A DNA stretch of 62,695 nt, counting the filler. It is 9 parts of 9 records of this genome, joined end to end, with 100 filler letters (N's around TTAATTAATTAA, not from the genome) between each part and the next. Parts side by side here need not be neighbours in the genome. Positions count along the whole stretch, not along the records: positions 29,210 to 34,510 come from SRR31147125_166058; 8 more parts are not named here. One strand, written 5' to 3'. This document shows positions 17,576 to 50,592 of this stretch, one piece after another; within the stretch, counting starts at the first letter, position 1, and each line of letters starts with the position of its first letter. The notes under the pieces were generated by a model. The model worked only from the letters and a program-made list of their open reading frames with translations. It searched no databases and was not told the origin of the DNA. A program made the position numbers and the translations under genes.

Positions 17576-17595
17576 CACACACACACACACACACA
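17576..17595. repeat. (CA)n microsatellite at contig end
   Basis: Direct reading. Similar repeats end other eukaryotic contigs: 23450-23472 (CA), 34484-34510 (AAC), 51047-51075 (TGGA), 57011-57035 (GAT), 57136-57159 (GT), 62672-62695 (GTT). Confidence 0.95.
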
Positions 17596-23472: not shown

Positions 23473-23572
23473 NNNNNNNNNNNNNNNNNNNNNNNNNNNN
23501 NNNNNNNNNNNNNNNNTTAATTAATTAANNNNNNNNNNNNNNNNNNNNNNNNNNNNNNNNNNNNNNNNNNNN
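23473..23572. other. Artificial contig spacer
   Basis: N-run with TTAATTAATTAA. Confidence 0.99.
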
Positions 23573-26500
23573 AGGCTGATTGACCCTATCCTTCTGGGTA
23601 AGCGAAACCCTACTGCCGCATCCACCACCACAAAATTGTCGCTTCGGACCTCATATCTATCCGGCCGTTCAACATCTTGATCCACATAAGTTGCCGAAAG
23701 ATCTGAAAACAACCCTGATGGCGAAAAAAAACGGATTGAAAGCGGTAAGCAAACAGTATCCACAGCCGAATTATTATCGCTATTGGCATTGTCACTCTCA
23801 CGAATCTTCTCAAATTTATATTCAGCCGTAAGGGACCATTGGTCACCAAGTAGCCAATATGAATAGACTTGGTAGCTTTCCTCCTTCTGGTCCTTGTATG
23901 TCACGAAATCTGAATCGTCAGTAGAGCTCTCGACCGGAACCCGCAGATCCCGCTGTGACGCCTCAAATCCGGTGTATAAAAAATCAGTGACTCGAATGTC
24001 CAAACCAATGCCAAGATTATCGGTCTCCGTTCCATTTTTATCGTCATAAAACTGGTTAAATCCAGATATCTGAGTTGGCTCTATGGTCTGTTCCACTGTC
24101 AGTGCACGTTTTACCGTTTCGAAAGCCGCTGCTCGAAGCCTGACGGCATCGGTTACATCCCACTGCAGACCGATTTTAGGGCTGAACGCATCCAAATCAA
24201 GATCCGAACCATGATAGTTGTCATAGCTAATTCCAAGTGTCCATTTCAGATTAATTGGAGACAAAAGATAAGTGTAAAGATACGAATTGTAATGTTCTCG
24301 TGTGTAGCTCCCTTTTTCAACTGAATTAAAAAAAGGTCTTGTAAATTCATAATCTTCCTCAACGTCGGTTCTGTATGCACCGATCCCCGCAGTGACATTT
24401 AATCGATGGGTAGTAAAAAGATATTGCGCCTCGGCCTGATATCCTCTTTCATCACCGAATATATTATCGTTGCTCGCTAAAAAACCAGATCCCCGGCTTT
24501 TGTTAATTTCTTCCTCACGATCGCTGTAAGTCAATGAAAAAAGCACCTTCGACAACTGCGACAATGAAAAGCTGGCTCCAATACGCGCATCATCTTGATC
24601 GACCTCCCGACGTGAATCCCAATTGGGATCCAAATTAACCTCGAGGTCGCCGTGCTCGGTCACTCGCCTGCGAAATTCCGTCTGGATATTGATTTTCGGG
24701 GTAACCGCAACCTGAGCGAAAGCATCGTATGTATCATTCTCCAGGTCGTTATTTTCACGAAAGCCGTCGGTCTGGTAATGGAACTGCCCCAAGCTATAGG
24801 ATAACCGCTTGTATAAGCCAGACAACACAAGCTCGTCCCCCCATGTCTCATTGTTGCCGGCCATGCCGGACGCTGACAGCCGTGGACGATCATATTCGAA
24901 GAGGGTTGCATACTCATTAAATGCCGATTTGAACAAACTGGAACCGGCAGTAATGTTTGCATCGGTAAGGTTCAACTGTGGCTGAACCGGATTGACGTTT
25001 ATCGGTTGGAGGAGTTGCGCCTTGAGGAGTTCGCTTTTCCGGGCAATTTCGCGCCGTGGGAGATTATAGTATGCATCGGAAAGGAATCGATGCGCAGAGT
25101 GATTGGTTGGATCGATGGATAAAGATGTGGAGGCTTCAGATAAAGCGATATTGCTAAAACCAAGGTCGTCATAGATCCGCGCCAAACTAACCCCGCGCGC
25201 AGCTTGGTCCTGATCCAACAACAACCGCGACCGATAGACCGCCCGATTATCGTTCAGCTGGATGGATTTTTGCAGATCCCGCAAAGCTTCCACCGGCCGG
25301 TTGAGACTCTGCTTGCGGATGGCATCATAAAACCAGGGGGTGGGATCGTTGGGGTCCAGTGATTTGGCGATTTCAAACTGCTGGCCATCCTGCGGGTCGC
25401 GTTTCTCATCGAAATAGGCCTTGCCCAGATAGCTGCGGACGATTGAATTACCGGGATCCAGGCCGGCGGCGATCTCGATTTCCGAGCGCCCTGACTTCAG
25501 GTCCCCGTCACGTATCATGGCCAACCCGAGGCCCAGGCGCGGAAAGGGTGCGGCGGAATCCAGGACGATCGCCTGGTTGAACGCCTCACGGGCCTTGTCC
25601 CTCTCGATGCGCGTCAGATGCGCAAAACCCAGAATCGTGTGAGCGTGGGCGGTGCGAGGGACCAATTCCACAGCCTTTCGAGCGGCGCTGACGCTCTTGT
25701 CCAACGCCCCGACCGAAAGCTGCAGATCGGCCAGGCGGGCCCAGGCCAGTCCGCTGTCGGGGGCGTGGGCGACCGCCTCCCGGGCGGCATCAAGTGCCTC
25801 CGGGAGGTTGAACTGGGACTGCAGGGCATAGGAAAGGGCAACATGGGCCGAGGGCGATCGGGGAGCGCGTTGCACCGCCTGCCGGGCCGTTTGAACAGCC
25901 TCGGCTGTACGGTTCTGTACAACGGCGATCACGGTCTTCAGGGCCAGGGCATCGCCCTTTTGCGGATCCAGGGCCAAGGCCTGCTGGATATCAGACCGCG
26001 CCTGGACAATACGGCCGACATGCAGCAGCATGGCCGCGCGATAGACGAAAAATGCAGCATCCCGGTTGCCGGCGGCGATTCTTTCCAATCGGGCAAAGGC
26101 GTCCGCGGTTTGCCCCTTGTTGAACAACGCCAGGGACTGGCTTAATTCGACCGACGCCGTTCCCGGCCCCAGGGCCAGAACGGGTGGGTAGTACATGGCC
26201 CACTGCACGCTTTCCCGGGGGCGAACAAGGCTGTGGCGCTGCGGGGCACCGTCGGCCTGCGCCACGGCGCCTTCTCCCTTTGCCATTTGAAGGATGCCAT
26301 GGTCGTTCTCGGCAAGAATCAGGCCCTCGAACAAATCGATGCGGGTTTGCCTGGCGTCGACTTGCACGAAAAACTCCGTCCCTTCCACTACTCCGTTGAC
26401 AAAAGGCGTAAGAATTTTCAGGCTGCGTGGCCGGTGGCTGAAAAAATTGGCGGCGCCTTCGATGAGCTTGAAGATGAATGTTCGCTCTTGCTCGATTTCG

Positions 26501-26907
26501 GTAAAAACCAACGAGCTGTTCTGATCCAGACGCATCAGGGCGTCGTTGCAGAGCACGATCCCGGCCCGGCTATTGATCTCGACGCGGATCTGATCCCCGG
26601 CGAAAAAGGTGTCGTTCAGTTTTACCGGCTGCCATAGGGCTTGGCCATGACGTCTGACCAGCACGTTCCCCTGCAGCGATACGATTTTGCTCACCCACCC
26701 CGCGCCATCAAGCTCACCGGCCTCTGATATTGAAGAGGCCCCAATGATACCCATGGCAACCCCAACGATTACCCACTTCACAATCCAGGCATTTTTACAG
26801 CGCTGTGTACTTTTCGTTTCCGTACTATTCGGTAGCAGTTTTCTTCGTCCAATAACCATCCATAACCTCAATTTAGATAGATCCTTTAAAAACGAGAGGT
26901 CCATCAT
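23573..26907 (-). CDS. FecR-TPR-beta-barrel outer-membrane receptor (NsrA-like), 3' truncated
   Basis: Signal-like hydrophobic stretch, FecR domain (GDQIRV...MRLDQNS...TPFVNGVVEGTEF.V.V), several TPRs, NDNRAVYRSRLLLDQD, then alternating beta-strand pattern (FSPKIGLQW, VRLRAAAF). Start codon uncertain; ATG 26907 overlaps the cyclase stop. Confidence 0.85.
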
Positions 26908-29109
26908 TTCTCTTGAAGGCGAACCACCCCGTCCCAACTACCCGCTGGTGGCGTGTGCGTTAAGGAGCGGCAACGCTCAATGTAAAAAAGGGAGGGGCCA
27001 TCATCCGGATCGATCCTCAAAACCTGGTGTAACCAATGATTGGCCTCTTCCCACCGTCCCTGTTGAAATGCCTCCAATCCGGATGCAAACAGCCGGCTCA
27101 ACGCATCCCTGTCATCGGTGTCGAGTGGATTATTGGCCAATAGTTCATGAACATGGACGGGTTGGGATTTCCCCTTAAAAAACAAACCGCCCCACAGAGC
27201 GTTCGAAAAATCCGTTGGTCTCTCCCATGGCATCACGGGAGACCAACACGTGCGTTTTCAGGAACTTGTTCAATCCCTCCAGGCGCGATGCGGTGTTGAC
27301 AATGTCCCCCACCGGCCGGTATTCGAAATGGTTCATCGCACCGATATTGCCCAAGAGCATTTCCCCGGCATGAATTCCGATCCGGGTCGGCATGGCATGG
27401 GCCCCCACCCGCCGGTTGAATCGATCAACGGCCATTGTAATTTCTACGGCCGCCTTGCAGGCCGCGTGCTTGATTTCACCGTTAGGTTCCGGGGACGTCC
27501 ACAGTGCCATCACCGAATCCCCCACCACCTGCAACACCAATCCGCCATTGGTCTTGATGGGCCCGAAAACAGCCTCGTAATAGGCATTCATCAATTCGGT
27601 CAGGCTGCCCGGATCCATGCTTTCGGAAAGGGTGGTGTAATTCTGGGCATCCGTAAACAGGCAAACCCCATAAAAAACCTGCCCTCCCAGATTCAGCGTC
27701 TTCAAATTGGTGGACAGACGGTCCACGACATCGTCAGGGAGGTAGTAGCCGAACGCCTCGCGGATGTTTTTGCGCTCAATCGTGGCTTTACGATGCTTGC
27801 AAATCAGACCGGCAACGAATGCGGTCGGCGCCTGTACCAGGATCGGAACGACTACCGGGTACCAAACCCCACCGGAGTTAAAGTGCAGCAAGGCAAGATA
27901 GAAATAGATGCCATTGCAAAGTGCGACGCCGGCGATGGAAAAGGCCGTCGACCGATAAAGGCTGACCGAGACCATCAGAATCCCCCACCCCGCCAGGAGC
28001 ATCAGGCCGGCCAAAGGTTTCAATGGGTAGACACCTTTGTCTTCGAGCAAATTACAAAAAGCGGTCGCCGCGATTTCGACGCCGCTGATATCGTTACCCG
28101 AATCATCGGAAAAGGCGGTGTAGAATCCGTCATGGGTCTTTATCCAATTGCTGCTTGTCTGCCCCACAAAACAGGCCGCATTTTTCTTTATTCTATTTTC
28201 AGATGGCTGAGAAAGGTTGGGCGCGGTCACCAGGCGATGATAGGAAATGGTCCGGACCGAACCGGCGGGCCCATAGAAATTGAGATACCGACTGTTGCCG
28301 GCCCCGTAAAGCGCCAGTAGTGAACGGACTCGCTGGAGGGTATGGGCGGACATATTGGCCGGTGGATCTCGTTCGAGGCGCGCTAACGCCTTTGATGCCG
28401 ATCTGGAATTTTCCTCAAACCACATCCGCAACGGACGGATCATACGAACCATCGTCTGAAGGTCGAACTCGGCATCGATGGGAACGGAAAGCCTATCCGC
28501 AAAATGCGCATCAACATCGGCAAGCAGTTGAATGAAATGGGGAAACGCGTCTTTGGCAAAGATATGAAAAGTGACGACGGGTAGCGTCGGCAGGTTGCCG
28601 GATGCGCTCCGGAAACACCAAAATTGATTCAATTTAATGGGCACTTTGGGCAATGGGAAGGGCGCTTGGGCAATGGCCGCATCGGCGAAAAGTGGAATCG
28701 CCGAAATGACGCGCTCCACCGTTACCCGAGTTTTTTGGGAACCATTTTGGTCGGAAAGGGCCATGGTCTGTGCGTCAAGGGCTTGGGTCAAAACAATGTT
28801 GCCGGCGCTGTGCATGGCAGCTGCAAGGGATTGGTCATTGGCCGCATCCTGGGGGGCCTGAAACAACATATCGAAGGCAATCACCGCCGCTTGCCGATCG
28901 GTCAAGCGGTCGATCAGCTGCGAATGGAGTCCTCTGGGCCATTGAGATGAATCCAATGGCAGATCCAGCACCCCTGCCGATTCATTGTCGATGGCCACGA
29001 CAACAACATCCGGCGGTGTCTTCTCAGGGCCGCGCAGGGTATAAAGCAGTTGCAACCCCAAATTTTCCTCGGCATCCGAAAAGATGGGCAGCGCACTGCT
29101 CATGACGCC
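26904..29109 (-). CDS. CHASE2-domain class III adenylate/guanylate cyclase (5' truncated, frameshift near 27178)
   Basis: VVVVAID..S...WPR.LH..LI, IAFDMLF, SGVEI.ATA..N, three TM helices, LFTD..NYT.LSE, GDSVMA.W, RIGIH.G...GNIG...EY..VGD.VNTASRLEGLNK. Removing one T restores VFKGKSQPV and the tail WDGVVRLQEK. Confidence 0.93.
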
Positions 29110-29209
29110 NNNNNNNNNNNNNNNNNNNNNNNNNNNNNNNNNNNNNNNNNNNNTTAATTAATTAANNNNNNNNNNNNNNNNNNNNNNNNNNNNNNNNNNN
29201 NNNNNNNNN
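29110..29209. other. Artificial contig spacer
   Basis: N-run with TTAATTAATTAA. Confidence 0.99.
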
Positions 29210-30227
29210 AATGGACATCGGGTGGTTGTGGGGATGTTGCTGGGACACGGAGCAGATGTGGATGCTCGAAACACTGTGTGTAGGGTTGAATTCCCTGGGT
29301 GGGTTCCGGGACGTCCGGGACGTGACCACGCATGCACGGATGAAGAGAACACCCCTTCATGTTGCGTCCATGTACGGGCACGGCGATGTAGTCAAGGATC
29401 TTCTGTGTGCCCATGCCCGTGTGGACATTTGTGATAAGGTAGAGAGGGGACGGACGGACGGACGGACAAACACCGTGTGACGCCGTATCCTTCCTTCCTG
29501 TCAGGAGGGTCGCACGGCCGCGGAGGTGGGATGGATCGTGTGGGGAAAGTGGGGAAATCGAGGCGAATTCTCAATCGAGTGTCCCGTAGCTGGCGTCTAA
29601 CGACGATGTACGGGCTGCGTTTCAAGAGACGATGAGCGGACAGCCTGCATCCTCCTCGAATTCTTCTGTCCTGCACAGTGCATGGATGGAGAAACAATCA
29701 CCATCCCTAGGCAAACGATGGCAGAGGCGATGGTGTGTTCTTGCGTGATTCAGATCCCTTTCTGATGGTACTGGTTAGGTTTGTCCTGCGCCCCACCGAT
29801 CTTCGTTGTACGTTCTCCTGCATCAAGCCACCATACCTCTCATGTGTGTGGGTGGTTGATAGATTATCATCCCGACTCGCTTTCGGCGGGCACACAAAGG
29901 GGAGAGATTCGTGTGGAGGATATCCAGGAGGTTTGCTTTGATTCTACAGATCCACGTACCTTCCACCTCCGGGTGAGGGTAGCACGGCATCGAAACGTCG
30001 AGGCAGCACGTGCACCGTTCGTTCTTCGTGCAGCCAGTCAGGGCGATGCCGAGGCGTGGGTGATGTGGCTTCGCTACGCTAAGGAGAACACAACACTTCC
30101 CCAACACGCTCCTGAGATAACTCCACTCCCTGATCCAGAGGAAGGGGAGACTGGAGTCGAGGAACGAGACAGCGCTACGCCAAGTCCACCTCCACCCCCA
30201 CCCCCTGAGTCACCTGAGCCAGAATGA
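29210..30227 (+). CDS. Eukaryotic ankyrin-repeat plus PH-domain protein, multi-exon, 5' truncated
   Basis: GH..VV.MLL.HGADVDARN, TPLHVASMYGH.DVV..LL; spliced PH domain WMEKQSPSLGKRWQRRWFVLRPTDLRYY...RGEI...FVLRAASQGDAEAWV; stop TGA 30225-30227. Confidence 0.8.
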
Positions 30228-30233
30228 AGATCT

Positions 30234-31846
30234 TTATTCCCACCAGAAACTCACTGCGAAACTGCAGGCCGCCCATTGATGGGTGAGGACGCGTCCCTAT
30301 TGAAATCAAACACGGTGAGAATACCTTGTTTCTTCGGATCGGACGTAGTGCCACCACTTGGGAGGAATGTAGAGCACTTCGGCCGTTCGTAGATGACACT
30401 CCTGGCACACAGCACCCGCGAATAATGGGAATCTTTCATGATCGGGTGCATCAACGTCCACTTGGCTTGTGTTGTGGAGCAAGGACTCCTCCTCAAAAGG
30501 ATACATGGCATTCGTACACTCAGGCGAATACAATCGAAGATACTTACATCCAACCACCTATGCATGATGCCGGTGAAACACGGCACTCACTCATCCATAC
30601 CATGATCACACCTGTACAAGAAGGTTGTGATAGGGATCGGTGTGCAGGGGAGAGATGGTGCCAGCTGGTCCAAACCACGCCATCACGCTTTGCAGATCTC
30701 CTCGGCTGCCATACAGAAGGAGGTGAGTGTGAGATGTAGAATAATACGCACCCAAGGGAACAGTAGGCAGGAGTATCAATGTCTGCTTTCAATGCGGGAA
30801 GCTGATCGAACAGTTGGTGCTGTGCAAGATATCCCATGATTTCGCTCTTGTCGTCTTCGTCCTCCACCACCACCTCCACCCGTTTTCGTTTTGTCACATG
30901 TTTGTCAATGAAATCACCTAATGTCATGAGCTGTTGTCCGCAATCGTCATCGGTATAGCGGCGTCCCAGTTCCACAGGGACTGTGCGTCGACCCGCTACA
31001 CGCTTCAAGTAGTCAAGATCCCGCCATCTGGAGAGAAGAATGGGCACCTCTTGTGATTCTGTGCACACACACACCTGGAGAGAGCGGGCCAGTGATTAAT
31101 AATCCCTTGAAGAATGACGGGACGTTGTGGTTGCATGAATTCTTGGAAGAATTGTGTGAGAGATGGAACGCGAAGGCGCGGGATCGTGTCCTCTTGTGGA
31201 GAAGAAGGGGATGGAGAGAATGAGTGCGTTGTTGTCTCGGGAGGAGATCCTCCAAGTGGTCCAGCACCCTCTTCAGCGGCAGCTGCCACAGCATAGAGCG
31301 AATCGCGATACGTCGATCCGCCCAGGAGAAGGGCCAGATCTATGGTACGCACGGCAGACGTCCACTGGAATCCCATCCACATGAGATAGAAGCGTTTCGT
31401 TGCTCAGACAGATACGCACATTTCCTCCACCGCATGCAGCAGCGGCTCGAAGGAGTGCGGCCAACGCGTACGCGTCTCGCCAACACGAAGGTACGTCCTT
31501 CCACGAACCGTGATGTAGTTGTTCCTCTGCACACAACCAGGCAGCCTCAGCTTGTCCCCGTGCTCGTTGAAGACGTGCTGAAGGTGGTGTGGTTGTGGCG
31601 TCTTCACGAGAAACAATCTCGAGCGCACGACCCAGAAGCAGACCCACGCTCTCTCCACCATGTGCGGTGAGCTCTACACCGTGAGCGGATGTGTTGGTTG
31701 TGGGGTTGGGTTGGGTTGGGTTGGGTTGGGAGACAACACACACCTTCCGTGACGTGATCTGTCAATTTGAGTTGGGCTATTACGTTGGACACGCGAGTAC
31801 AAGGATCCTGTGTGGATCGGGCACGTTTGCCGCTGCCATCACTCAT
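30234..31846 (-). CDS. KDM8: JmjC protein JMJD5/KDM8, multi-exon
   Basis: [93 protein letters not shown] (HxD), [12 protein letters not shown]...SFAVSFWWE-stop. Confidence 0.93.
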
Positions 31847-31928
31847 GGCAAAAGGACGGAAGAAAGAAAGAAAGGAATTCCCCCTCCCGTTTCGTTTTCA
31901 TTGACACACTTCCTGCAGTATAGAATCA

Positions 31929-33993
31929 TCATCCTTGAGCAGCAGCATCCTTTGGAGCTGAGTGTCCCTGACGGGTCTGAGATCCGGAGATTATCAGTAC
32001 AGAATCATCGTTCGAGCATACTACCTTGAGCCGTTCTTCAAACGGATCCACCCGCGCCAACTCTTCTCGATGCCGCTCGAGTACAACCTGTGTCGTGTCA
32101 TACAGCGGATGGGAACCCTCAAAGTAGTGTGGTGCATCTCCCCAGTCTCCATAGGCCACTTCTTTTCCCACGGCCGTCACGCGTCCCCACAAGCAAGCTT
32201 TACATTGGCCAGCGGTGTCATCCAGGCAAGGCTTTCCTTCATAGAGCTGTGATTCGTTCTTGAGGGGAGCGATCCGTCTGCACCCCTCCAAATGCATACC
32301 TGATAGTCGTAACGATACTTGGTGGGAGTGATGATGGGCATTAGAATGTTTGCCCCTGCATACATGCCAAGTTCCCGGCCCCCTTCCCCTGAAAGAGCCT
32401 GTGTGATCACGTACACAGATGAGGGAGTGAAGGCCCCTGGGTGATCTGTCTTTCTTACCTGAAGAGCTGTTGTGGAAGCAATGTTAAGAGTAGGAAGCTT
32501 CATGCGGGTGAGCGCAATCATGCGACACCCAAGATGGAGGAGTTTCTCATTGTACTTTTCCAGGTCAATCTGCACACACGAATCACACTTAGGAAGGTCA
32601 AGAGAAGCACACACACCCCTTCATGTTCTCGCAGCCACTCATCTCCCATGGGTGTACCGCTTTGATGAATGTAAGGACCCATTCCAATCATATCGGCTCC
32701 AATCTGTTGGCGAGATGTCATGTTTAGACGCATCCTGTTCGTTGGCCTCATGACAACAACTTCACCTTCTCAAAAAAGAGGATATCATTGGCCATATCCT
32801 CATAGGTTTGGTGCGGGAGACCGATCATGACACCTGTTCCCATCTTGTTGCAGTTGGTCCCTGTCAGTTGTGTCTACACACCTCCAGACACGCGAACCCA
32901 CCTGGTAGCCAATTTCTTTGAGGTCCCGTAGGCATTGTACACGCCTCTCCCAATCGTGATCCTCGGGATGCATCCGCCTGTACAGTTGTGGATTCGATGT
33001 CTCAATGCGAAGTAGATAACGGTGGGCACCCGCATCAAAAAGCTCCTACGAAGCGTATGAGCCACTCAGCTCGTGCATACACACCCCACTCCGTACCTTG
33101 TACTCGGCCTTTGTGAGTTCACCAATACACAGAGTGATGCCCACACCACCCGTGCCGTCCACATTTGTTTCCTTCTTGATTCTCTTGATCAGATCCACCA
33201 GATGACCCACACGTTTCACGGTTGGTAATTCTCCTGACTGCAAACAGATCGATCCGTATCGGTGTTTGTGGGCCCACTTGGCACACTCGATGATCTCCTC
33301 ATCCTTCATTGTGTAGCGATGCACTTTCATGTCTCGTCGAATACCACAATACATGCAATTCTATAGCACAAGGCAGTGGGTGGTGGTGGTGGTGGGACAC
33401 CAAATCGATTGTACCCCACCTTACTGCACACGTTGGAGAATTCAATCAAACCGCGATAATACACCTTATTGCCCACAGTGTGGTTTGTGACGTGTCCACC
33501 AAAACGAAACAGGTTCTCATCCTGTGAAGCGTTCATGTGTGAGAGTGTGTGTTCACCACCACCAGCTTCCACACGTACCTCCTCTGTACTATGTGGAGCG
33601 ACAAGGTACGCAAGGTCCTCGCCGGACAGTGGGAGTCGGAACTGGTGGGCAACGTGTGGGAAGGGCCACGCATCACACGCGTGTCTTCGGGCCTTACTTT
33701 TGCGTCTTCTTCCGTGTATTGCCCCGCGAGGATACGGTCGCACAGTTCTTTGTGGAATCCAAAAGGGGTAGGCGCCGCAGCGTAGGACGTACGAAGGGGA
33801 AGGGGACGCGTGGAAGTGGATAGGGGTCGTCGAACCAGGGAGGAGACCCTCCGAAGAAGTGTACGCTGAGGGAACGCATGTCAGGGAGTTGGTGGAGAGA
33901 CGGAGTGTGGTGTGGACGCAGGACACCCACCCGTACGACCTGGGAGGCCCTACAGCCTTCAAGGGGGGTCATCCTCAACACACGGGACAGCAT
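31929..33993 (-). CDS. hydE: [FeFe]-hydrogenase maturase HydE (radical SAM), nuclear, 12 exons, about 480 aa
   Basis: Spliced: VYYRGLIEFSNVCSK/NCMYCGIRR (CxxxCxxC), CLQSGE, ITLCIGE, AGAHRYLLRIETSN, GTGVMIGLP.QT, DMIGMGPYI...TP, NIASTTALQAL, AGANILMP, YDYQLYEGKP, Cx7Cx2C. Exons 33993-33937, 33865-33698, 33641-33579, 33521-33420, 33360-33097, 33045-32902, 32843-32766, 32703-32617, 32569-32459, 32398-32300, 32246-32025, 31976-31929. Confidence 0.93.
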
Positions 33994-34161
33994 GGGCAGC
34001 AGGGAGAGAGTGCAGACGGGTGGGGGAAGAAGGGAATGGCGACGGCAACAGGGACGGCAGGGACGTTTCCTGATCATCTCGCCCCCCTCTCCCCTGACAC
34101 CCCCTGAGAGCATGTTCCTCTCCCAGAAAGGATGGATGAATCCGTGTATGATGATTCGGAG

Positions 34162-34450
34162 TTACACACACATGTCCCGGGCTACTTGGAAGGCACTCAC
34201 AACAGCACCAAGCTGTAACCTCTCGGATCCCCCCACGGAGAGTTGATGTCTATTCCAGATGAGCCAAGTCGTCTGCCACCCACCCACCCACCCATCCCCA
34301 TTCCTCTTCACACGTACTCGATTGTTGCAAGTTTGTCTAGGAGATAGATTCGTACACGAGGTTCAAACTTGAGACGCAGGACATGGGTGTAGAGCTGAAC
34401 GAGGATATCATGAAGAGCTAATCCCTTGCGCACTTTCAGATCTTGCATAT
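34162..34450 (-). CDS. RFC5: Replication factor C small subunit (RFC5-type), last two exons; not in the ORF track
   Basis: MQDLKVRKGLALHDILVQLYTHVLRLKFEPRVRIYLLDKLATIE/HQLSVGGSERLQLGAVVSAFQVARDMCV-stop matches the RFC5 C-terminal pattern KGLALHDIL...LSVG..E..QL. Confidence 0.88.
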
Positions 34451-34510
34451 CTGAGGAGAATGATTGGCAGGTTGATGGGTTCGCAACAACAACAACAACA
34501 ACAACAACAA

Positions 34511-34610
34511 NNNNNNNNNNNNNNNNNNNNNNNNNNNNNNNNNNNNNNNNNNNNTTAATTAATTAANNNNNNNNNNNNNNNNNNNNNNNNNNNNNNNNNN
34601 NNNNNNNNNN
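34511..34610. other. Artificial contig spacer
   Basis: N-run with TTAATTAATTAA. Confidence 0.99.
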
Positions 34611-34664
34611 AACGATGAGATTGGGCAAAATGATCGTTTTTGGATCGAAACTATCTAGCGAACT

Positions 34665-35432
34665 ATGACTGTAGATAAACAATTTCCGGAAGGGATGACG
34701 CCGCTTGGGAGCGAACCGTTCACCTTTCACTGTCACCCTGGTGTTTCATGTTTCACCGTGTGCTGTAAACGGGTCGAACTGGATCTTTATCCATATGATA
34801 TCCTGCGCTTGAAGCACGGTCTGGGCATAGATTCGGAAACCTTTATGCGAACCTATACGGAACTCAGGAAGGGCGCGAATCCATATTTCCCGACAGTGGT
34901 GCTGAAACAGACCGAAACCGACGGCATACTACAGTGCCCCTTTCTTTCCGGGGAAGGCTGCACGGTTTACCGGGACCGGCCGTCAGCATGTCGAACATAT
35001 CCACTTGAACGGGCTGTTGATCGAACTCCTGGGAAAGGTAGAGCAACCGATTACTATTTTATCGTCAAACATGATTATTGCAGAGGACATGAGGAAGATC
35101 GACAGATCGATGTCCGGAAGTGGGTCCGAAATCAGCAACTCGATCAGTATAATGTCATGAATGATCTGTGGACTGAGGTCGATACGCTGTTTGCTACCAA
35201 CCCCTGGAAGGGAGAAGGGAGCGGCGGACAGAAACAACAACTCGCGTTCATGGTCTGTTACGATATCGATGGTTTTAGGAATTTCGTGCGCGTACAGAGA
35301 ATTTTAGAGCAGTACCTGGTCAACCGTGAGCGGAAAAAACGGATGGAAAAAGACGATGCCGAACTTCTCAAATTCGGGTTCGAGTGGCTTAAGGAAATCT
35401 TTGGTTCGCCGTCGTCCTTGATCAGGCGATGA
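34665..35432 (+). CDS. YkgJ-family cysteine-cluster protein
   Basis: F.CHPGVSCFT.CC, CPFL...GCTVY.DRP.ACRTYP, YC.GH. Confidence 0.88.
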   Translation: MTVDKQFPEGMTPLGSEPFTFHCHPGVSCFTVCCKRVELDLYPYDILRLKHGLGIDSETFMRTYTELRKGANPYFPTVVLKQTETDGILQCPFLSGEGCTVYRDRPSACRTYPLERAVDRTPGKGRATDYYFIVKHDYCRGHEEDRQIDVRKWVRNQQLDQYNVMNDLWTEVDTLFATNPWKGEGSGGQKQQLAFMVCYDIDGFRNFVRVQRILEQYLVNRERKKRMEKDDAELLKFGFEWLKEIFGSPSSLIRR

Positions 35433-35467
35433 CAGCGAAATGCGGGTATCACCTGAGTATCAGATAC

Positions 35468-35496
35468 TTGCAAGTGTAATAGTAATATGGTAAAAA
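35468..35496 (+). promoter_or_regulatory. Putative rpsB promoter
   Basis: TTGCAA, 17-nt spacer, TAAAAA with extended -10 TG at 35488-35489. Confidence 0.5.
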
Positions 35497-35544
35497 ACAG
35501 TGTTCTGCGCCGTCAATTCAGTAGGCGTGAGAGAAACAGGAATT

Positions 35545-35612
35545 AAAAACACACATTCCCTGCCAATCTGGTGTCGGCAGTGAGCCGATCAGAGGGGATG
35601 GAGGAACAACCA
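35545..35612 (+). ncRNA. rpsB 5' leader (S2 autoregulatory, t44-like RNA)
   Basis: ACACACA...GGTG...stem...TGGAGG..AACC pattern directly upstream of the rpsB RBS. Confidence 0.7.
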
Positions 35613-35626
35613 GAAGGAGGTTATTC

Positions 35627-36445
35627 ATGGCAAACGCAAGTGTAAAAGAGATGCTGCAGGCCGGACTGCATTTCGGTCATCAGACCAGACGCTGGAACCC
35701 CAAGATGAAGCCGTATATCTATGGACCGCGGAACGGTATCTACATCATCAATCTCGATATGACCAAACGCATGTTCGATAAGGCATGCGATTTTATCACC
35801 CAACGGGTGGGATCCGGCGGATCGATCCTCTTTGTCGGTACAAAACGCCAGGCCCAGTCGATTATACGGGAAGAAGCCAGACGCTGTAAAATGTACTATG
35901 TCGATCATCGCTGGCTGGGCGGCATGATGACGAACTTCCAGACCATCAAGACCAGTGTCGATCGATTGAAATCCATTGAATCGATGCAGGAGGATGGGTC
36001 TATCAACAAGTTTCCGAAGAAGGAGATCTTGATGATGGAGAAGGAGCGCATCAAACTCGAACGTAACGTTGGCGGTATCAAGGATATGCGGACGTTGCCC
36101 GATGTGATCTTCATTGTCGATCCAAAAAATGAAGCAATTGCGGTTAATGAAGCGCAGAAGCTTGGGATCCCCATTGTTGCAATCACCGATACAAACTGCG
36201 ACCCGGACGGTATCGATTACCTGATTCCCGGTAACGACGACGCGATCAAGGCGATCAAGCTGATCAGCCACTACGTCTCGGAAGCGGTATTGCAGGGCAA
36301 GGCATCCAGGGACGGAGACGATGCTTCCGATGAGGATATCGAGGCCGCCATGGCTGAAGCTACGGAAGAAATAGCGCAGGAAACCTCGACGACTGATGCG
36401 GTCGAAGAAACCGTGGAAGCGCCGCAGGAAAAGGCGGCCGAGTAG
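35627..36445 (+). CDS. rpsB: 30S ribosomal protein S2
   Basis: [50 protein letters not shown]. Confidence 0.99.
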
Positions 36446-36483
36446 CGTCGCTATTGCGTCCGCCCGGGCGGATGAAAACAGAT

Positions 36484-36516
36484 AAGAGGGGCTGTCAATC
36501 GACCGCCCCTTTTCGT
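36484..36516 (+). terminator. Hairpin/attenuator between rpsB and tsf
   Basis: AAGAGGGGC-TGTC-AATC-GAC-CGCCCCTTTT stem-loop followed by T-rich tail. Confidence 0.55.
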
Positions 36517-36643
36517 TATAGACCGATATAAACTGACTTCGCGGAGTTGAACCGCGGAGCGGGTGACCAGTAAACTCACACAATAGAGCAGAGGATTCGC
36601 ATCGTTGAGTAGTACATCGATGCATCCGTTAATGGAGGATAAC

Positions 36644-37240
36644 ATGAAAATTACCACCCAGATGGTTAAAGAGCTGCGCGATAAAACCAGCGCCGGCATG
36701 ATGGACTGTAAAAAGGCATTGAGCGAGACCGACGGTGACATGGAGCAGGCGGTTGATCTGCTGCGCAAGAAAGGACTGGCGGTTGCCGCGAAGCGCGCGG
36801 GCAGGGCCACGTCGGAAGGCGTTGTGGAAACTTACATCCATGCCGGTGGAAAACTGGGCGTGATGATCGAACTGAACTGTGAGACCGACTTCGTCGCGAA
36901 AACCGATCAGTTTCGGGAACTGGCGCGTGACCTGGCCATGCACATCGCCGCCGCCAACCCGGTAGCGATCGACCGTGAAGGTGTGCCCGAGGACGTTCAG
37001 GCGCGCGAAAAGGCAATTTACGTACAGCAGGCGCTGGAGTCAGGTAAGCCCGAGAACATTGTCGAGAAAATAGTTACCGGAAAGATCGACAAATTCCTTG
37101 CCGAAATCTGCCTGTTGGAGCAAAAGTACGTGAAGGATCCCGATCTGAGTGTACAGGACCTGCTGACCGACTGTGTCGGAAAAATGGGTGAGAACATCTC
37201 AATCAAGCGTTTTGCACGTTTCCAGATCGGTGTAGAATAG
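36644..37240 (+). CDS. tsf: Elongation factor Ts (short, 198-aa form)
   Basis: [43 protein letters not shown] before ATG 36644. Confidence 0.98.
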
Positions 37241-37298
37241 GCAGCAGAACCGGAGCCCGGTTCAGGCCGAGCGCCCAAATCAACCCGGGAGCATACCG

Positions 37299-38015
37299 AT
37301 GCAGGTCGAATACCAGCGGATCCTACTGAAACTCAGTGGCGAGGCATTAATGGGTAGTGATTCCTACGGGATCAATACCGGTGTGATTGACTTTGTCGCG
37401 TCGGAGGTCAAATCGGTTGTTGCTCAAGGCGTTCAAGTCGGTCTCGTTATCGGGGCAGGCAACATTTTTCGCGGAGTGGCCGGAGCCAGCAAGGGCATGG
37501 ATCGGGCCACCGCGGATAACATGGGGATGCTGGCCACGGTTATGAACAGCCTGGCCATGCAGGACGCGCTGGAGCGCTGCGGTGTCGATACGAGAGTGCA
37601 GTCGGCTATTCCAATGCAGTCGGTTTGCGAGCCCTACATCAGGAGAAGGGCGACGCGGCATCTCGAAAAAGGCAGAGCGGTTATATTTGCCGCCGGTACG
37701 GGTAATCCGTATTTTACGACGGACTCTGCTGGAGTACTGCGTGCGCTGGAGATCGACGCCAACCTGATCATCAAGGCCACGAAGGTGGACGGTGTGTACG
37801 ACAAGGATCCGGAGAAACATTCCGATGCCGTCAAGTACGACCGGCTGACCTACGAAACGGTACTGAAGAAGGGGCTTCGAGTTATGGATGCTGCCGGTAT
37901 CGCCCTGGCTAAAGAAGATGCCAAACCTATTCTTGTCATGAATATGACGGTACCCGGCAATATCATGAGGGCCGTGTGCGGCGAAAATGTAGGAACATTG
38001 ATCAGCTCCGAATAA
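37299..38015 (+). CDS. pyrH: Uridylate kinase
   Basis: [45 protein letters not shown]. Confidence 0.98.
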
Positions 38016-38043
38016 GAAATAAAATTTAAGATGGGGTAATGAC

Positions 38044-38598
38044 ATGAGCGATGTGATACTCGAAATGGCTGAAAAGATGGAGAAAAGCGTGGAGGCGCTC
38101 AAGAACGAACTGGCAAAAGTTCGTACCGGCCGGGCGTCATTGGCACTGCTCGACGGCATCTCTGTTGATGCATACGGGAGTAGCATGCCGCTTAACCAGG
38201 TCGGGACCCTGACTATTCCCGAGAGCCGCACCATCGCCATTCAGCCCTGGGACCCGCAGGTACTGGGTGCTATCGAGAAGGCAATCCTCAAATCAGACGT
38301 TGGGCTGACTCCGGTCAACGACGGTAAGATCATCCGCCTCAATATCCCCCAGCTCACCGAGGAGCGCAGGAAAGAGCTGGTCAAACTGGTCAAGAAAGTG
38401 GCCGAGGAATTTCGTGTTGCTGTCCGCAATGTCCGCCGGGATGCGATCGATCAGCTCAAGAAACAGAAGAAAGACAAGGATATCTCTGAGGACGACCTGT
38501 TCAAACTGCAGGACGATGCACAGACGGAGACGGATTCCTACATCGCCCAGATCGATGAAATAAGCGCTTCCAAGGAACAAGAGGTGATGGACGTCTGA
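38044..38598 (+). CDS. frr: Ribosome recycling factor
   Basis: VRTGRA, IQPWD, IEKAI..SD.GLTP.NDG, LTEERRKELVK, VRNVRRDA. Confidence 0.98.
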   Translation: MSDVILEMAEKMEKSVEALKNELAKVRTGRASLALLDGISVDAYGSSMPLNQVGTLTIPESRTIAIQPWDPQVLGAIEKAILKSDVGLTPVNDGKIIRLNIPQLTEERRKELVKLVKKVAEEFRVAVRNVRRDAIDQLKKQKKDKDISEDDLFKLQDDAQTETDSYIAQIDEISASKEQEVMDV

Positions 38599-38636
38599 TG
38601 ATGGCCGCTGGGCCGCATTTGTCCTGATACCGATGT

Positions 38637-39389
38637 ATGACCATTCCCTCCACACTCGATTCCGAGAGAATTCCGACCCATGTGGCCATTGTCATGGACG
38701 GCAATGGCCGCTGGGCTAAACAGCGGAGAAAACCAAGGCTTTACGGCCACAAGATAGGCGCTGATTCGGTCCGGGAGATTGTTGAGGGCTCCCGCGAAAT
38801 CGGAGTAAAGTACCTGACGCTGTACGCCTTTTCCTCAGAGAACTGGAACCGCCCCCAGCAGGAGGTCTCCGGCCTGATGAACATCCTCAAAACATATCTG
38901 GTTTCCGAGCTCGGTCGAATGGAAAAAAACGAGATTCGGCTCAACTGCATCGGAGATGTTTCAAAGCTTCCTGGGGCGGTTCGACAAACCCTGCAGGATT
39001 CGATGAGCAGAACGGTGGCCAATGACAAGCTGGTGCTCAACCTGGCGCTTAGCTACGGTGCCCGAGACGAATTGTGCCGTGCCGTCGCGGAGATCGCCGG
39101 CGCATGCAGTGCCGGGGAGCTTGATCCGGGCCGGATCGACCATCAACTGATTTCCGATCATCTCTATACTGCCGGACAACCGGATCCTGACCTGTTGATC
39201 AGGACCGGTGGAGAACAGCGGTTGTCCAATTTCCTGCTGTGGCAGGCATCGTATGCGGAGATCTATTTTACCGAAACGATGTGGCCTGATTTCAGGAAGG
39301 ACCAGTATCTGCAGGCATTGCTCGATTTTCAACGGCGTGAGCGGAGGTTTGGAAAAACCGCAGAACAGGTGAAGGAGAACGACGAATGA
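38637..39389 (+). CDS. uppS: Undecaprenyl diphosphate synthase
   Basis: HVAIVMDGNGRWA, LYAFSSENWNRP, PDLLIRTGGEQRLSNFLLWQ, RERRFG. Confidence 0.98.
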   Translation: MTIPSTLDSERIPTHVAIVMDGNGRWAKQRRKPRLYGHKIGADSVREIVEGSREIGVKYLTLYAFSSENWNRPQQEVSGLMNILKTYLVSELGRMEKNEIRLNCIGDVSKLPGAVRQTLQDSMSRTVANDKLVLNLALSYGARDELCRAVAEIAGACSAGELDPGRIDHQLISDHLYTAGQPDPDLLIRTGGEQRLSNFLLWQASYAEIYFTETMWPDFRKDQYLQALLDFQRRERRFGKTAEQVKENDE

Positions 39390-40189
39390 ATAGATGGATT
39401 CCAGGGATCTTACTGGCACTGTTCTGGCTGCTGCTCCTGGCCAGGGGATCGTTTCTGCTGTTCTGGATCGTCGCGTCGCTCATCGGTTTTATCGCGGCTC
39501 GAGAGTTCTGCCGCATGGCATTTGCTGATCTGCTCTATGAACAGGATCGTGTTCTTCTTCCGTTGCTGTTGATCGCACCCATATTTGCAGCGGTTTTCTG
39601 CACCAGCTATCCGGGGGCCGCTTCTTTCGGGACCGTACTCGGACTGGTCGGGCTGACCGGCTACGTATTCACCAACTACTCTCGTTTCAAAAGCCCGGTT
39701 GCTCTTTTGACCAGGGGGGCGCTGGGACTCGTCTTCATTGGTTTTTTTCTTTCCCATACCGTTTTGATCAGGGGGCTTGATGACGGCGGTAACTGGCTTA
39801 TCGTGTTGATGGGAATCACCGCTGGCAGCGACAGCGGCGCATACTTTGTCGGCTGCCGATGGGGCAAAAGAAAACTGTGCCCCGCCATCAGTCCGAAAAA
39901 AACTATGGAAGGTGCCGCAGGGGGTGTTGCCGGCGGACTCATCGGCGGTGTCCTGATGGCTTTGTTTTTTCCGGTACCCGCATCGCTGATGATGATGATG
40001 GCTCTGGCTATCGTCCTGTCGGTCGTCGGGATGACGGGAGATCTGATCGAATCGGTGGTGAAGCGGGGTTATGGCATTAAGGATTCCGGCTCGTTGCTCG
40101 GGGGACATGGAGGGGTGCTCGACCGCGTTGATTCCCTGCTGATGGCCGGTCCGTTTCTCTATTACATTCTCATTTACGCTGGTTATTGA
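39386..40189 (+). CDS. cdsA: Phosphatidate cytidylyltransferase
   Basis: [46 protein letters not shown]. Confidence 0.97.
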
Positions 40190-41352
40190 TGAAAACTCTC
40201 GCCCTGCTCGGTTCCACCGGCTCCATTGGGGTCAATGTCCTCAATATCGTTCGTCAGTTTCCGGATCGCTACCGAATCTGCGGACTGGCCGCAGGGAAAA
40301 ATACACACTTGTTGAGCAACCAGATCCTGGAGTTCAACCCGAAGCTTATTTCCGTTTTCGATGAAGAGCATGCCGATCAACTCCGGACGCTGCTTCCCGG
40401 TGAGTACGCCGAGCGTATCATGTACGGCACGGAGGGAAACCAGGCGGTTGCGGCAATGGACGACAGCGATATGGCGATCTGCGCCGTGGTCGGTGCAGCC
40501 GGGCTGCTCCCGACTATCGCTGCCATCGAGGCGGGTAAGGATATCGGCCTTGCCAACAAGGAGACCCTTGTCGTTGCCGGCAGAATCGTGATGGACAAGG
40601 TCAGGGCACACGGGGTCAAACTACTTCCGATCGACTCGGAACACAGTGCTATCTTTCAGGCCCTGGAAGCGGGACGCCGCGAGGATGTATCCCAGCTCAT
40701 CCTGACGGCATCGGGAGGACCGTTTCTGCACACACCGGCAGACGACCTCCGCTCCGTGACCTGTGACGATGCGCTCAATCACCCGAACTGGAGCATGGGC
40801 AGGAAGATCAGCATTGATTCGGCAACATTAATGAACAAAGGGCTCGAGGTTATTGAAGCACGCTGGCTTTTCGATATTGAGGTGGCTTCGATCAGCGTCG
40901 TCGTACATCCCCAGTCGATCGTGCACTCCCTGGTAGAATACCAGGACGGGTCGGTCATCGCGCAGCTCGGTATCCCCGATATGAAAATTCCGATCGCGTA
41001 CGCGTTGTCGTACCCGGAACGGATCGAACTCGGCCTGAAACCGTTAAACCTCTGGCAGTGCAGCGACCTCGAGTTCTATGAGCCCGATTACGAGCGTTTT
41101 CCGGCACTGCGCCTTGCATTCAGCGCCCTTGAACAGGGCGGTACCAGTCCGGCTGTTCTGAATGCCGCCAACGAGGAGGCGGTAGACGCGTTCCTTGACA
41201 AGAAGATCAGCTTTCCAGAGATTCCGGTCATTGTCGGACAAACCATGGCTCACGTGAAAGGCGGCGACGACCTGGAGTTAGAGGAGTTGATCGCAGCTGA
41301 CGGTGAGGCCCGAAGGTATACACGGTCACTGATCAGCCGTAACCCATCCTGA
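40186..41352 (+). CDS. dxr: 1-deoxy-D-xylulose 5-phosphate reductoisomerase
   Basis: [47 protein letters not shown]. Confidence 0.98.
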
Positions 41353-41373
41353 CCACCCCAATAGTACTGGTTT

Positions 41374-42318
41374 ATGAATACGCTTGTCTCATTCATTGTT
41401 GTTCTCGGCATCCTTATTTTCGTCCATGAGCTTGGACATTTCCTGTTCGCCAAACTGTTCAGGGTGCAGGTACTGAAGTTCTCGCTCGGATTCGGCCCGA
41501 AGCTGATCAGCAGGACGGTGGGGGAGACCGAATACCAGATTTCAGCGTTTCCTCTCGGCGGCTATGTCAAAATGCTTGGAGAGAACCCGGAGGAGTCGGC
41601 CGCGGGGGCCGATGCCGACCGCTCATTCGCAGCCAAGCCGGTCTGGAACCGGTTCTTTATTGTGCTGGCGGGCCCCCTGTTCAACCTGCTTTTTTCCGTA
41701 TTTCTGTTCTTCATGATTTTTCTGGTCATGGGGATTCCAGAGAACCGTGACAGCACGATGATCGGTGAGGTCAGCGAAGGCTCTCCGGCGCTGCATGCCG
41801 GGGTCGCCGCCGGTGATACGATTGTTGCGATTGACGAAACTCCGGTACGGAGCTGGAGGATGTGCTCCATGTTGTCTCATCCAGTGAGGGCAAGACGCTG
41901 CAATTTACCGTAATACGGGACGCAGGTGAAGTGGTGATCCCCGTGACACCGCGGCTGGACAGCGTCACGAACGTGTTCGGTGAGGAGGTGGAGCAGCGGT
42001 TTATGATCGGCATTGTGAAGAAGGAGGTAATCGAATATGACCGGGTCGGACCAATCAAGGCTCTGCAGGCCGGTATCTGGCAGACCTGGATGTTTATCTA
42101 TCTGACGTTTATGGGGATCGTCAAGATCATCCAGAACGTTGTTCCGGCCTCGGAGCTCGGCGGGCCGATTCTCATCGCGCAGCTGGCCGGCGAGCAGGCC
42201 CGGGCCGGGTGGCTGAACCTTGCTCATTTCATGGGGCTGCTCAGTGTGAACCTGGGGATTCTCAACCTGCTGCCGATTCCAATCCTGGATGGCGGACACC
42301 TGGTCTTTCTGACGCTCG
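41374..42318 (+). CDS. rseP: Intramembrane metalloprotease RseP (frameshift near 41856, 3' truncated)
   Basis: HELGH, GGYVKM, AGPLFN, PDZ domain, NLLPIPILDGGH; one extra G restores SWEDVLHVV. Confidence 0.95.
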
Positions 42319-42418
42319 NNNNNNNNNNNNNNNNNNNNNNNNNNNNNNNNNNNNNNNNNNNNTTAATTAATTAANNNNNNNNNNNNNNNNNNNNNNNNNN
42401 NNNNNNNNNNNNNNNNNN
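42319..42418. other. Artificial contig spacer
   Basis: N-run with TTAATTAATTAA. Confidence 0.99.
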
Positions 42419-43483
42419 TTCGGGGTTGTAATCATAGCGATGCACGTTCGGATTGTAGACCCAGGTATCGGGTTTGTACGGTCCGGTTGCCGCGACACCA
42501 TACCCCAACAGAACACCATCAATGATCTCCTGTTTATTAATGGCGTAAGAAAGAGCCTGCCTGACCCTTTTGTCCTGAAACAGCGGACGCCTTAAATTGT
42601 ACCCTAGGTAACTGTAACCAAAACTCAGATAACGATACTTCTGATAGAGACGCCGAAAAGCAGGCGTATCCGTTTGTCGATCATATTGCAGGGGCAACAA
42701 CCCCATGAAATCAAGGCTGCCTGTTTGAAGTTCGAGAAACTGCGTAGACAGATCAGGAATGATGCGATACACGACCCGCTTGATATAGGGTTGCCCTTCA
42801 AAATAATCGGGGTTGGATTCCAGAACAACCTTTTCCCCTCCGAGCCATTCAACGAAGCGATATGGGCCCGTGCCGACAGGATGCCGCGCCAACGGACTTT
42901 TGGTGATCTCCACCCCTTCCAGAAGGTGTTTTGGATGAACGGCCGTCGCCCAACTCAAAAGCGCAGGAGCATAAGGCTTGTCGTATTTCACGATAAAGGT
43001 GTAATCGTCCGGCACCTCGACAGAGGTCACCTGGCGGAACGCTTCAGCGTAAGCTGTCGGCGTCTCCGGATCAACATAAAGGTCGTAAGTGAATTTAACA
43101 TCCGCCGAGGTAAAGGGCGCACCATCGTGCCACCTCACCCCTTTACGCAGATGAAAAATCAGGGTCAGATTATCATCCGATATATCCCAGGATTCTGCCA
43201 GTTCGCCTTCGACAACAAGATTTTTGTCGTAACGGATCAGACCATTGTAAACCAGCCCATTGATTGAACTTGATGCCGAATCAGACGCAAGAACCGGCAG
43301 CAGCGTACTGGCGTCGCCAATCGACGCTTCGATAAACGTGTCACCATGAACCGGTGTCTGAGTTTTAGACACCCCGGGCAGATCACTACCCTCATCCTGC
43401 TGGCAACCGATCAGCAGAACCAGGATAAACCCACAGGCCAGAGCAGCCACCCTAGTGAAGTTCTTACTTTTTTCCCTGTTCAC
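42419..43483 (-). CDS. Peptide/nickel ABC transporter substrate-binding lipoprotein, family 5 (3' truncated)
   Basis: Lipobox LLIGC; LAESW.IS.D..T..F.LRKGVRWHDG.PFT..DV.FT; PVGTGPY; DKRVRQAL..AI. Confidence 0.93.
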
Positions 43484-45986: not shown

Positions 45987-46225
45987 AGCTGTCCTTTGAT
46001 AATCCTTAGATAAAGATTAATTAGCACATTCATTTCATGAGAGCAAAAGAATAACATGAAAACCAGAGGGCAGAACACCCGAGAGCCAGGGCGTTAAGAG
46101 CCGATATTTATTCGCACTATTTTCATTCTGTTATTGTATTTCATTCAAGACCGGATTAATCTATTAGAAAAGAGTTAGATTTCTCCACAAGACATTGACC
46201 CGCTTGCCTGCCATGGGGCCTTAGC

Positions 46226-46471
46226 ATGCATGAGTCTAAAGAAAACTCAGTCCGCGAAGCCTGGATTCTGTGCCTGATCCTGGGGCTGGTCATGATTAAT
46301 TTCCCCTTCGTCCATATTTTCAATACGGAAAAAACGATATTCGGGATTCCTGAGTTGGTGCTCTATTTCTTCATCGGCTGGCCGGCATCCATTATCGTCA
46401 TTTGGCTCTTTGTCTATCATCTGAGTAAATCGGCTCAGAGCTCACCCGAAACAGACAGTGATCAAACCTGA
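46226..46471 (+). CDS. Small two-TM membrane protein preceding the SLC5 fusion
   Basis: 81 aa, two hydrophobic helices, IFGIP..V.Y.F..W motif; ends 9 nt before the symporter fusion ORF. Confidence 0.75.
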   Translation: MHESKENSVREAWILCLILGLVMINFPFVHIFNTEKTIFGIPELVLYFFIGWPASIIVIWLFVYHLSKSAQSSPETDSDQT

Positions 46472-46480
46472 TCTTCGATA

Positions 46481-50583: not shown

Positions 50584-50592
50584 AAACAACTC

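Follow-up and report, generated by a model that had tools for sequence, protein, structure and literature searches.

In a window of 62,695 bases (the whole stretch of DNA analysed), a contig of 5301 bases at positions 29210–34510, with spacers at both ends, carries on its minus strand a gene for HydE. This protein is one of the three maturases, with HydG and HydF, that assemble the H-cluster of [FeFe] hydrogenase, as set out in portions of PMC7449678 and PMC3785491. Tblastn with two HydE proteins (P0001 and P0002) returned colinear pieces, parted by short gaps, along 33993–31929. The predicted gene model, built from coordinates, runs from an ATG at 33993 to a stop codon at 31931–31929 and comprises 11 exons (33993–33940, 33865–33698, 33641–33579, 33521–33420, 33360–33097, 33045–32902, 32843–32766, 32703–32617, 32569–32459, 32398–32300 and 32246–31929) and 10 introns, encoding 495 residues with no internal stop. 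All ten introns have GT–AG borders and measure 47–74 nt, in a gene of about 2 kb. They are all phase 0 in the chosen model, and alternative GT–AG pairs could alter at most two of them; phase 0 is not genome-wide, the last intron of the adjacent KDM8 gene (30324–30262, 63 nt) being phase 2. An introner-like origin was considered and rejected: the ten introns are unlike one another (best pairwise score 0.19 per base) and are therefore not copies of one element.

The motifs expected of a HydE are intact once the introns are removed. The radical S-adenosylmethionine (SAM) motif CX3CX2C (Cys127, Cys131 and Cys134; 33346–33428, minus strand) is interrupted by the 59-nt intron 4 (33419–33361), with Cys127 as the third-last residue of exon 4 and Cys131 as the second residue of exon 5. 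The sole other GT–AG pair for this intron would remove four residues, Cys127 among them. Each of the three motif columns holds Cys in 59 of the 62 other HydE rows in our alignment. The YxxY motif (Tyr389 and Tyr392; 32241–32305, minus strand) spans intron 10 (32299–32247), and each tyrosine is kept in all 62 other rows. The accessory Fe–S cluster ligands, CX7CX2C (Cys397, Cys405 and Cys408; 32193–32228, minus strand), are also present; because Cys occurs in these columns in 36, 33 and 34 of the 62 rows, this motif is optional within the family.

Family membership was assessed with the NCBIfam models TIGR03956 (HydE equivalog, whole-protein cut-off 254.6 bits), TIGR00433 (BioB), TIGR03910 (PylB) and TIGR03918 (HydF). 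TIGR03956 was the top NCBIfam family for seven of the nine exons scanned, colinear over profile positions 31–335 of 340, and gave per-exon scores of up to 60.2 bits, against at most 22.9 for BioB and 20.2 for PylB. The two exons that it did not match are the N-terminal-extension exon and exon 9. Exon 5, the longest core exon (33097–33360, minus strand, 88 residues), scored 52.8 bits on TIGR03956, compared with 22.9 for BioB and 20.2 for PylB, and its best solved relative is Thermotoga maritima HydE (3ciw, E = 1.7e-9). An exhaustive search seeded with the best match, P0001, against a library holding one representative per 50%-identity cluster yielded 150 representatives. The spliced model aligned to HydE proteins with up to 53.8% identity over 357 residues (E = 1.8e-142). 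TIGR03956 was the top family for 49 of the 50 matches scanned, the remaining one being a HydEF fusion that has it second, and 41 of the 50 exceeded its cut-off. Public names mislabel some of these proteins: Anaeramoeba flamelloides P0032 is called 3-methylornithine synthase, yet it scores 302.5 bits for HydE and 105.4 for PylB, and two JGI proteins in the HydE clade (P0064 and P0074) are labelled biotin synthase.

A HydE profile of 62 rows, from which the window's protein had been left out, gave that protein 507.8 bits, which places it 12th of 70 rows; the weakest of the training rows reached 369.0. BioB and PylB, related radical-SAM enzymes with the same core motif, scored only 70–144 bits on the same profile (BioB 70.1–72.7, PylB 124.9–143.5), and HydG scored 97.4–103.5. 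The window's protein thereby exceeds seven of the nine named eukaryotic HydEs listed (those of Anaeramoeba, Carpediemonas, Cantina, Pygsuia, Seminavis, Hexamita and Discosporangium). Every one of the 53 columns in which one residue occurs in at least 90% of the 62 other HydE rows is kept. We then placed the protein in a tree of 70 rows and 393 columns, made from the 60 best of 127 matches whose alignments cover 300 residues or more, together with two clostridial HydEs and seven outgroup rows (BioB, PylB and HydG). No true BioB was found in the first three genomes searched, and the BioB and PylB outgroups were taken from other genomes. The HydE clade, 63 rows including the window's protein, stood apart from PylB, BioB and HydG with support of 99/99 in the careful maximum-likelihood tree and 98 in the quick tree. 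Identity as BioB or PylB was rejected on the low per-exon scores and the separate clades. The end branch of the window's protein is 0.62, compared with a median of 0.72. With all family-wide residues preserved and a branch of unremarkable length, the gene seems to be under constraint and functional; we regard it as a real, intact, stand-alone and apparently functional HydE orthologue.

Within HydE, the protein falls in a 26-row clade (99/86) and a 25-row clade (97/90) of the careful tree, both of which contain all 13 named eukaryotic rows: Naegleria, Carpediemonas, Hexamita, Pygsuia, Cantina, Anaeramoeba, a diatom, a brown alga, Paulinella (two rows), a green alga, an MMETSP transcript and a JGI HydEF protein. 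Five clade rows without names (P0046, P0076, P0051, P0074 and P0052) may be bacterial sisters. Eukaryotic HydE, HydF and HydG form one clade, of single origin in the case of HydE, according to the relevant parts of Stairs et al. 2020 (PMC7449678). Inside the clade the window's protein stands alone, as sister, weakly (81/70), to a well-supported 17-row core; in the quick tree, the green-algal and Paulinella rows lie inside the group corresponding to that core. The HydEs of Naegleria gruberi (XP_002671091.1), Carpediemonas membranifera, Pygsuia biforma, Cantina marsupialis, Anaeramoeba flamelloides and Hexamita inflata are likewise stand-alone, single-domain radical-SAM proteins with an N-terminal extension, and TIGR03956 is their top family among the 50 proteins scanned (Hexamita lies outside the 50). 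P0020, which represents the Naegleria cluster, is 53.2% identical to the window's protein, and the other named protists are less so, with Hexamita at 41.7% among the top 60 matches. Unlike these proteins, the window's HydE has no specific sister, lies outside the 17-row core, ends in a 63-residue C-terminal tail and is encoded with 10 introns in about 2 kb. Its lone, weakly placed branch outside the core, the unexplained tail and the failure to find hydA, hydF and hydG in the window could speak for a HydE-like radical-SAM paralogue with another task, in an organism without [FeFe] hydrogenase. We consider this very improbable, as the complete set of conserved columns and an end branch shorter than the median give no sign of relaxed or shifted constraint, and the profile score lies above those of most named eukaryotic HydEs listed.

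The window's HydE is not fused to HydF. Its frame ends at 31929 after a tail without family, whereas the fused proteins in the set (P0029, P0031, P0048 and P0049) carry TIGR03918 after HydE. No GTPase or HydF domain was found among the 84 open reading frames (ORFs) of at least 45 aa on the hydE contig, only 8 of which had any Pfam match, and three HydF parts cut from fused eukaryotic HydEF proteins gave no tblastn match in the window. Green-algal and Paulinella HydEFs (Edaphochlamys debaryana KAG2501618.1, 1066 aa; Paulinella micropora P0049, 998 aa) share a homologous HydE domain and the same large eukaryotic clade, but are fused to HydF, whereas here the next gene follows the hydE stop after 82 nt. 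The predicted C-terminal tail, about 63 residues past the end of homology (31929–32120, minus strand; 3′ end uncertain), matched no Pfam family, no relative and none of the 62 aligned rows. A match to a UDP-GlcNAc pyrophosphorylase-like entry in the PDB was dismissed as chance level (E = 0.28). A further GT...AG pair at 32024–31913 (112 nt, phase 0) would replace most of the tail with four residues and bring a stop at 31900–31898.

Bacterial HydEs (Thermotoga maritima 3ciw, Bacteroidales and Clostridia) belong to the same fold family, carry CX3CX2C and the optional CX7CX2C, and are 42–52% identical to the window's protein, but lack both the N-terminal extension and introns. Bacterial hydE often adjoins hydG, whereas hydE here sits among unrelated housekeeping genes. 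In two of three bacterial genomes, hydE adjoins a radical-SAM ORF of 467–480 residues that we took as hydG (L020/L023 in G001 and L021/L025 in G002); the third genome, G003, has its counterpart ORF (486 residues) on the opposite strand, about 7 kb from hydE.

Three other genes share the 5301-base contig. Upstream of hydE lies the 3′ end of an RFC5-like gene, truncated at the contig end (34311–34508, minus strand; Pfam Rep_fac_C, E = 8.8e-8). The best solved relatives of this fragment are three RFC5 chains (human; E about 4e-8), followed by archaeal RFC small subunits at E = 0.097 or worse, and 314 nt (33994–34307) separate the RFC5 stop from the hydE ATG. Downstream, the 82-nt interval (31847–31928) leads from the hydE stop to the ATG (31846) of a multi-exon KDM8/JMJD5-like gene (30234–31846, minus strand), with ARM_KDM8_N and Cupin_8/JmjC domains (Pfam) and exon pieces found by tblastn; relatives named JMJD5 or KDM8 are 44–60% identical over one KDM8 exon, those bearing the name JMJD5 at 55–58%. 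A pentanucleotide repeat (GGGTT-type, plus strand) at about 31690–31735 apparently lies in the first KDM8 intron, between the ATG exon and the ARM_KDM8_N exon. Convergent with KDM8 is an ankyrin-repeat gene truncated at the other contig end (29210–30227, plus strand; Pfam Ank, E = 1.6e-8), whose last 153-residue ORF matched no family; its stop (30225–30227) and that of KDM8 (30236–30234) are 6 nt apart. This gene packing is very tight for so intron-dense a genome.

These neighbours count as evidence only within their own contig, because the window is made of separate contigs, five of them bacterial. It is not one piece of DNA but nine contigs, with sixteen runs of 44 N in pairs; each spacer reads N44-TTAATTAATTAA-N44, where TTAATTAATTAA is a 12-mer (6448–6547, 17476–17575, 23473–23572, 29110–29209, 34511–34610, 42319–42418, 50947–51046 and 57036–57135). 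Two sets of ORFs, 27 long ones and 136 of at least 70 aa, were scanned with Pfam to sort the contigs, and tetranucleotide profiles separate the same two groups cleanly. By Pfam content, five are bacterial (1–6447, 6548–17475, 23573–29109, 34611–42318 and 42419–50946), with genes such as those for ribosomal protein S2, EF-Ts, uridylate kinase, UppS, CdsA, Dxr, RecC and a bacterial alpha-2-macroglobulin. Four are eukaryotic and amount to about 23 kb: the hydE contig, 17576–23472 with minus-strand exons of an IP3/ryanodine-receptor-type channel (RYDR_ITPR, RIH_assoc and Ion_trans; Pfam), 51047–57035 with PSME4 and a PF12044 peptidase, and 57136–62695 with STL11. Tetranucleotide correlations are 0.76–0.88 among the four eukaryotic contigs and 0.04–0.37 between eukaryotic and bacterial ones; for the hydE contig, they are 0.77–0.87 with the other three eukaryotic contigs and 0.11–0.28 with the bacterial contigs. 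With bacterial and eukaryotic contigs mixed in this way, bin-level reasoning from presence and absence, or treating the window as one organism, would mislead.

Together, the dense spliceosomal-type introns and the eukaryotic neighbours support hydE being a nuclear, eukaryotic gene. The contrary view, that a bacterial hydE sits on a misassembled or contaminating contig and that its introns are assembly noise, could draw on the bacterial origin of most of the window and on one bacterial contig whose genes are broken into overlapping frames, a sign that the assembly is not clean. Against this, removal of ten GT...AG interruptions of 47–74 nt restores a colinear HydE, the three neighbouring genes are eukaryotic and themselves split, composition fits the eukaryotic contigs and not the bacterial ones, and the protein groups in a eukaryotic clade; the chance of a bacterial gene is, in our judgement, negligible. 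A preliminary description of this DNA had placed a complete hydE at 31929–33993, with a CxxxCxxC motif split by a spliceosomal intron, YxxY and Cx7Cx2C motifs, and RFC5 and JMJD5 as flanking genes, and had taken it to be stand-alone, unlike green-algal HydEF, and not bacterial contamination. All of this holds in our analysis, as does membership of HydE when the protein is set in a phylogeny with BioB, PylB and eukaryotic HydEs; that description had, however, overlooked that the window joins nine contigs, five of them bacterial.

The broken genes lie on the plus strand of bacterial contig 6548–17475, where alpha-2-macroglobulin is divided among three overlapping ORFs that differ in frame, and RecC between two (8709–13547 and 13740–17244). 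These are either frameshifted genes or assembly indel errors. Another bacterial contig, 34611–42318, carries on its plus strand (35531–41352) a conserved cluster of rpsB, tsf, an amino-acid-kinase-family gene (pyrH-like), uppS, cdsA and dxr. No Rfam families and no tRNA genes were found in the window. Two sequencing runs, both of DNA and from a single study, contain part of the stretch, and no RNA run is listed for it.

Searches of public collections gave no close relative of the organism. A word-index search with exon 5 returned no match above 53%. A closer relative could sit inside the 50%-identity clusters of P0001, P0020 and P0021, although a 90%-cluster word search speaks against this for proteins of at least 155 residues. 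Among metagenome contigs, 39 loci were recovered, none above 47% identity over the full exon, with three partial matches at 51–59%. For the five of these loci that were compared with the whole model, the best identity was 48% over 353 residues, and none of the five contained exon-like pieces parted by introns, the match of one (L076) being split into two overlapping pieces. Because no row is more than 53.8% identical, the organism is not Acanthamoeba. Other genes are 31–60% identical to their best relatives in word-index searches of 5.8 billion clustered proteins. The PSME4 exon, whose contig belongs to the same composition group, has Mastigamoeba balamuthi (31%), Lichtheimia (28%) and Mastigella among its best relatives, and the KDM8 exon has a best relative at 60%, Mucoromycota at 56% and vertebrates at 51–58%; an ESM Atlas search found only generic HEAT-repeat clusters. 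The PSME4 and KDM8 relatives hint at Amorphea, a signal far too weak to name a group.

The protein begins with an N-terminal extension of about 55 residues (33755–33993, minus strand), a region that takes in exon 1 and intron 1 together with the opening part of exon 2. Bacterial HydE rows begin to align only after model residues 52–78, so that the extension is not part of bacterial HydE. It contains 10 Arg or Lys residues, one Asp or Glu and 13 Ser or Thr residues, for a net charge of +9 over 55 residues. An amphipathic moment of 0.73 at residues 21–38 was matched by 40 of 2000 shuffles, and no hydrophobic run of five or more residues was found in the extension. In its make-up the predicted N-terminus looks like a mitochondrial presequence.

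From the sequence of this gene and its setting, we consider it highly probable that the locus is a nuclear gene of a microbial eukaryote, encoding a stand-alone, apparently functional HydE; the structure of the gene, its family, its eukaryotic surroundings and the absence of a HydF fusion are demonstrated by the analysis. In the wider scheme, HydE, a radical-SAM enzyme, would act together with HydG and HydF in building the H-cluster's 2Fe subcluster; the organism would also have HydA, HydF and HydG and be able to make H2; and the Arg/Ser-rich, acid-poor extension would direct HydE into a mitochondrion or a mitochondrion-derived organelle. A role in hydrogen metabolism is likely, whereas a mitochondrial or mitochondrion-derived destination is one that we favour only tentatively.

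Several observations weigh against this interpretation. Tblastn with three HydA, two HydG and three HydF queries found none of these proteins in the window, the only HydG match being a cross-match to hydE itself, and a Pfam scan of the 136 ORFs of at least 70 aa on the other three eukaryotic contigs revealed no HydA, HydF or HydG; because only about 23 kb of eukaryotic DNA is covered, these results say nothing either way. The exon-wise TIGR03956 scores sum to about 203 bits, below the whole-protein cut-off of 254.6, although that sum pays the local-alignment penalty seven times and lacks one exon, and named eukaryotic HydEs taken as whole proteins score 247.9–305.9 bits, two of which fall slightly short of the cut-off. 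Homology supports neither exon 1 and intron 1 nor the 3′ tail of the predicted model. The model requires exon 1 and intron 1 since exon 2 lacks a Met and an in-frame stop lies just upstream; exon 1, which bears part of the extension, is thus placed by the need for a start codon only. Last, in the passages of PMC4007538 that concern Naegleria, the N-terminal extensions of HydE do not serve as mitochondrial signals, and HydE and the hydrogenase are cytosolic. Because the Naegleria HydE carries an extension yet is cytosolic, the extension here can point to targeting only weakly.

The same Naegleria account favours a cytosolic HydE with an extension that has no targeting role, as in Naegleria gruberi, and the Naegleria-cluster row P0020 is the nearest to the window's protein by path length in the careful tree. 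This alternative seems improbable to us, given that the charge, the single acidic residue and the amphipathic stretch of the extension have the classic make-up of a matrix presequence, and that HydE, HydF and HydG of Acanthamoeba are mitochondrial in the part of PMC13632651 that deals with them. A further alternative is a plastid-targeted HydE of an alga, in which the extension would be a chloroplast transit peptide and the protein would support an [FeFe] hydrogenase of the plastid, as happens in green algae. An extension rich in Ser, Thr and Arg is as compatible with a transit peptide as with a presequence, HydE sequences from a green alga, Paulinella, a diatom and a brown alga lie in the same clade, Paulinella has a stand-alone form (P0041, 531 aa) beside its fused one, and the maturation pathway operates within plastids of certain algae, as stated in a section of Stairs et al. 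(PMC7449678). We nevertheless judge this alternative quite unlikely: the window's protein falls outside the 17-row core, whereas the green-algal and Paulinella rows fall inside the corresponding group of the quick tree; it has no HydF fusion; its extension lacks the signal-peptide-like hydrophobic run that complex plastids would require; two other genes of the composition group have their best relatives in Archamoebae, Mucoromycota and animals rather than in algae; and none of the four eukaryotic contigs was seen to carry a plastid-related gene.

Returning to the favoured mitochondrial reading, the type of organelle is a separate matter. The preliminary description had proposed a possibly undescribed protist with an H2-producing, mitochondrion-related organelle. 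Its first element is in keeping with the lack of any close relative in the collections searched (best 53.8%), whereas the step from HydE to such an organelle is not supported. The clade of the window's protein also holds the HydEs of a diatom, a brown alga, Paulinella, a green alga and the aerobe Naegleria, whose HydE is cytosolic, and since aerobes and algae have HydE too, its presence does not imply a mitochondrion-related organelle. In Acanthamoeba, according to the excerpted account in PMC13632651, HydA and HydE, HydF and HydG reside in aerobic, respiring mitochondria and are induced by hypoxia. The Acanthamoeba castellanii system is our favoured working model, that is, a nuclear, intron-bearing, presequence-carrying maturase for a facultative anaerobic mitochondrial H2 branch, as far as portions of PMC13632651 and PMC3785491 describe it. 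On the present DNA, the organelle may be an ordinary aerobic mitochondrion with such a branch or a reduced one. HydE marks a capacity for H2 metabolism and not a particular organelle type, and by itself does not show an anaerobic organelle.

The gene family is already known from many protists and algae, and the present gene is one more example, from an apparently unsampled microbial eukaryote. HydE, HydF and HydG are patchily distributed across eukaryotes, and their origin is debated, with one ancient acquisition, possibly from a chlamydial donor, set against repeated transfers. Each clearly nuclear copy from an unsampled lineage informs that debate, and a hydE as divergent and intron-dense as this one argues for long residence in the nucleus. 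It is conceivable, although we hold it to be rather doubtful, that the contig stems from a eukaryotic lineage without any sequenced close relative, with a HydE outside the core of sampled eukaryotic HydEs and a compact, intron-dense genome. Were this true, and did the organism also live as a facultative or obligate anaerobe whose mitochondria produce H2, the gene would provide an independent, deep data point for the debate on whether HydE, HydF and HydG were already present in the last common ancestor of eukaryotes.

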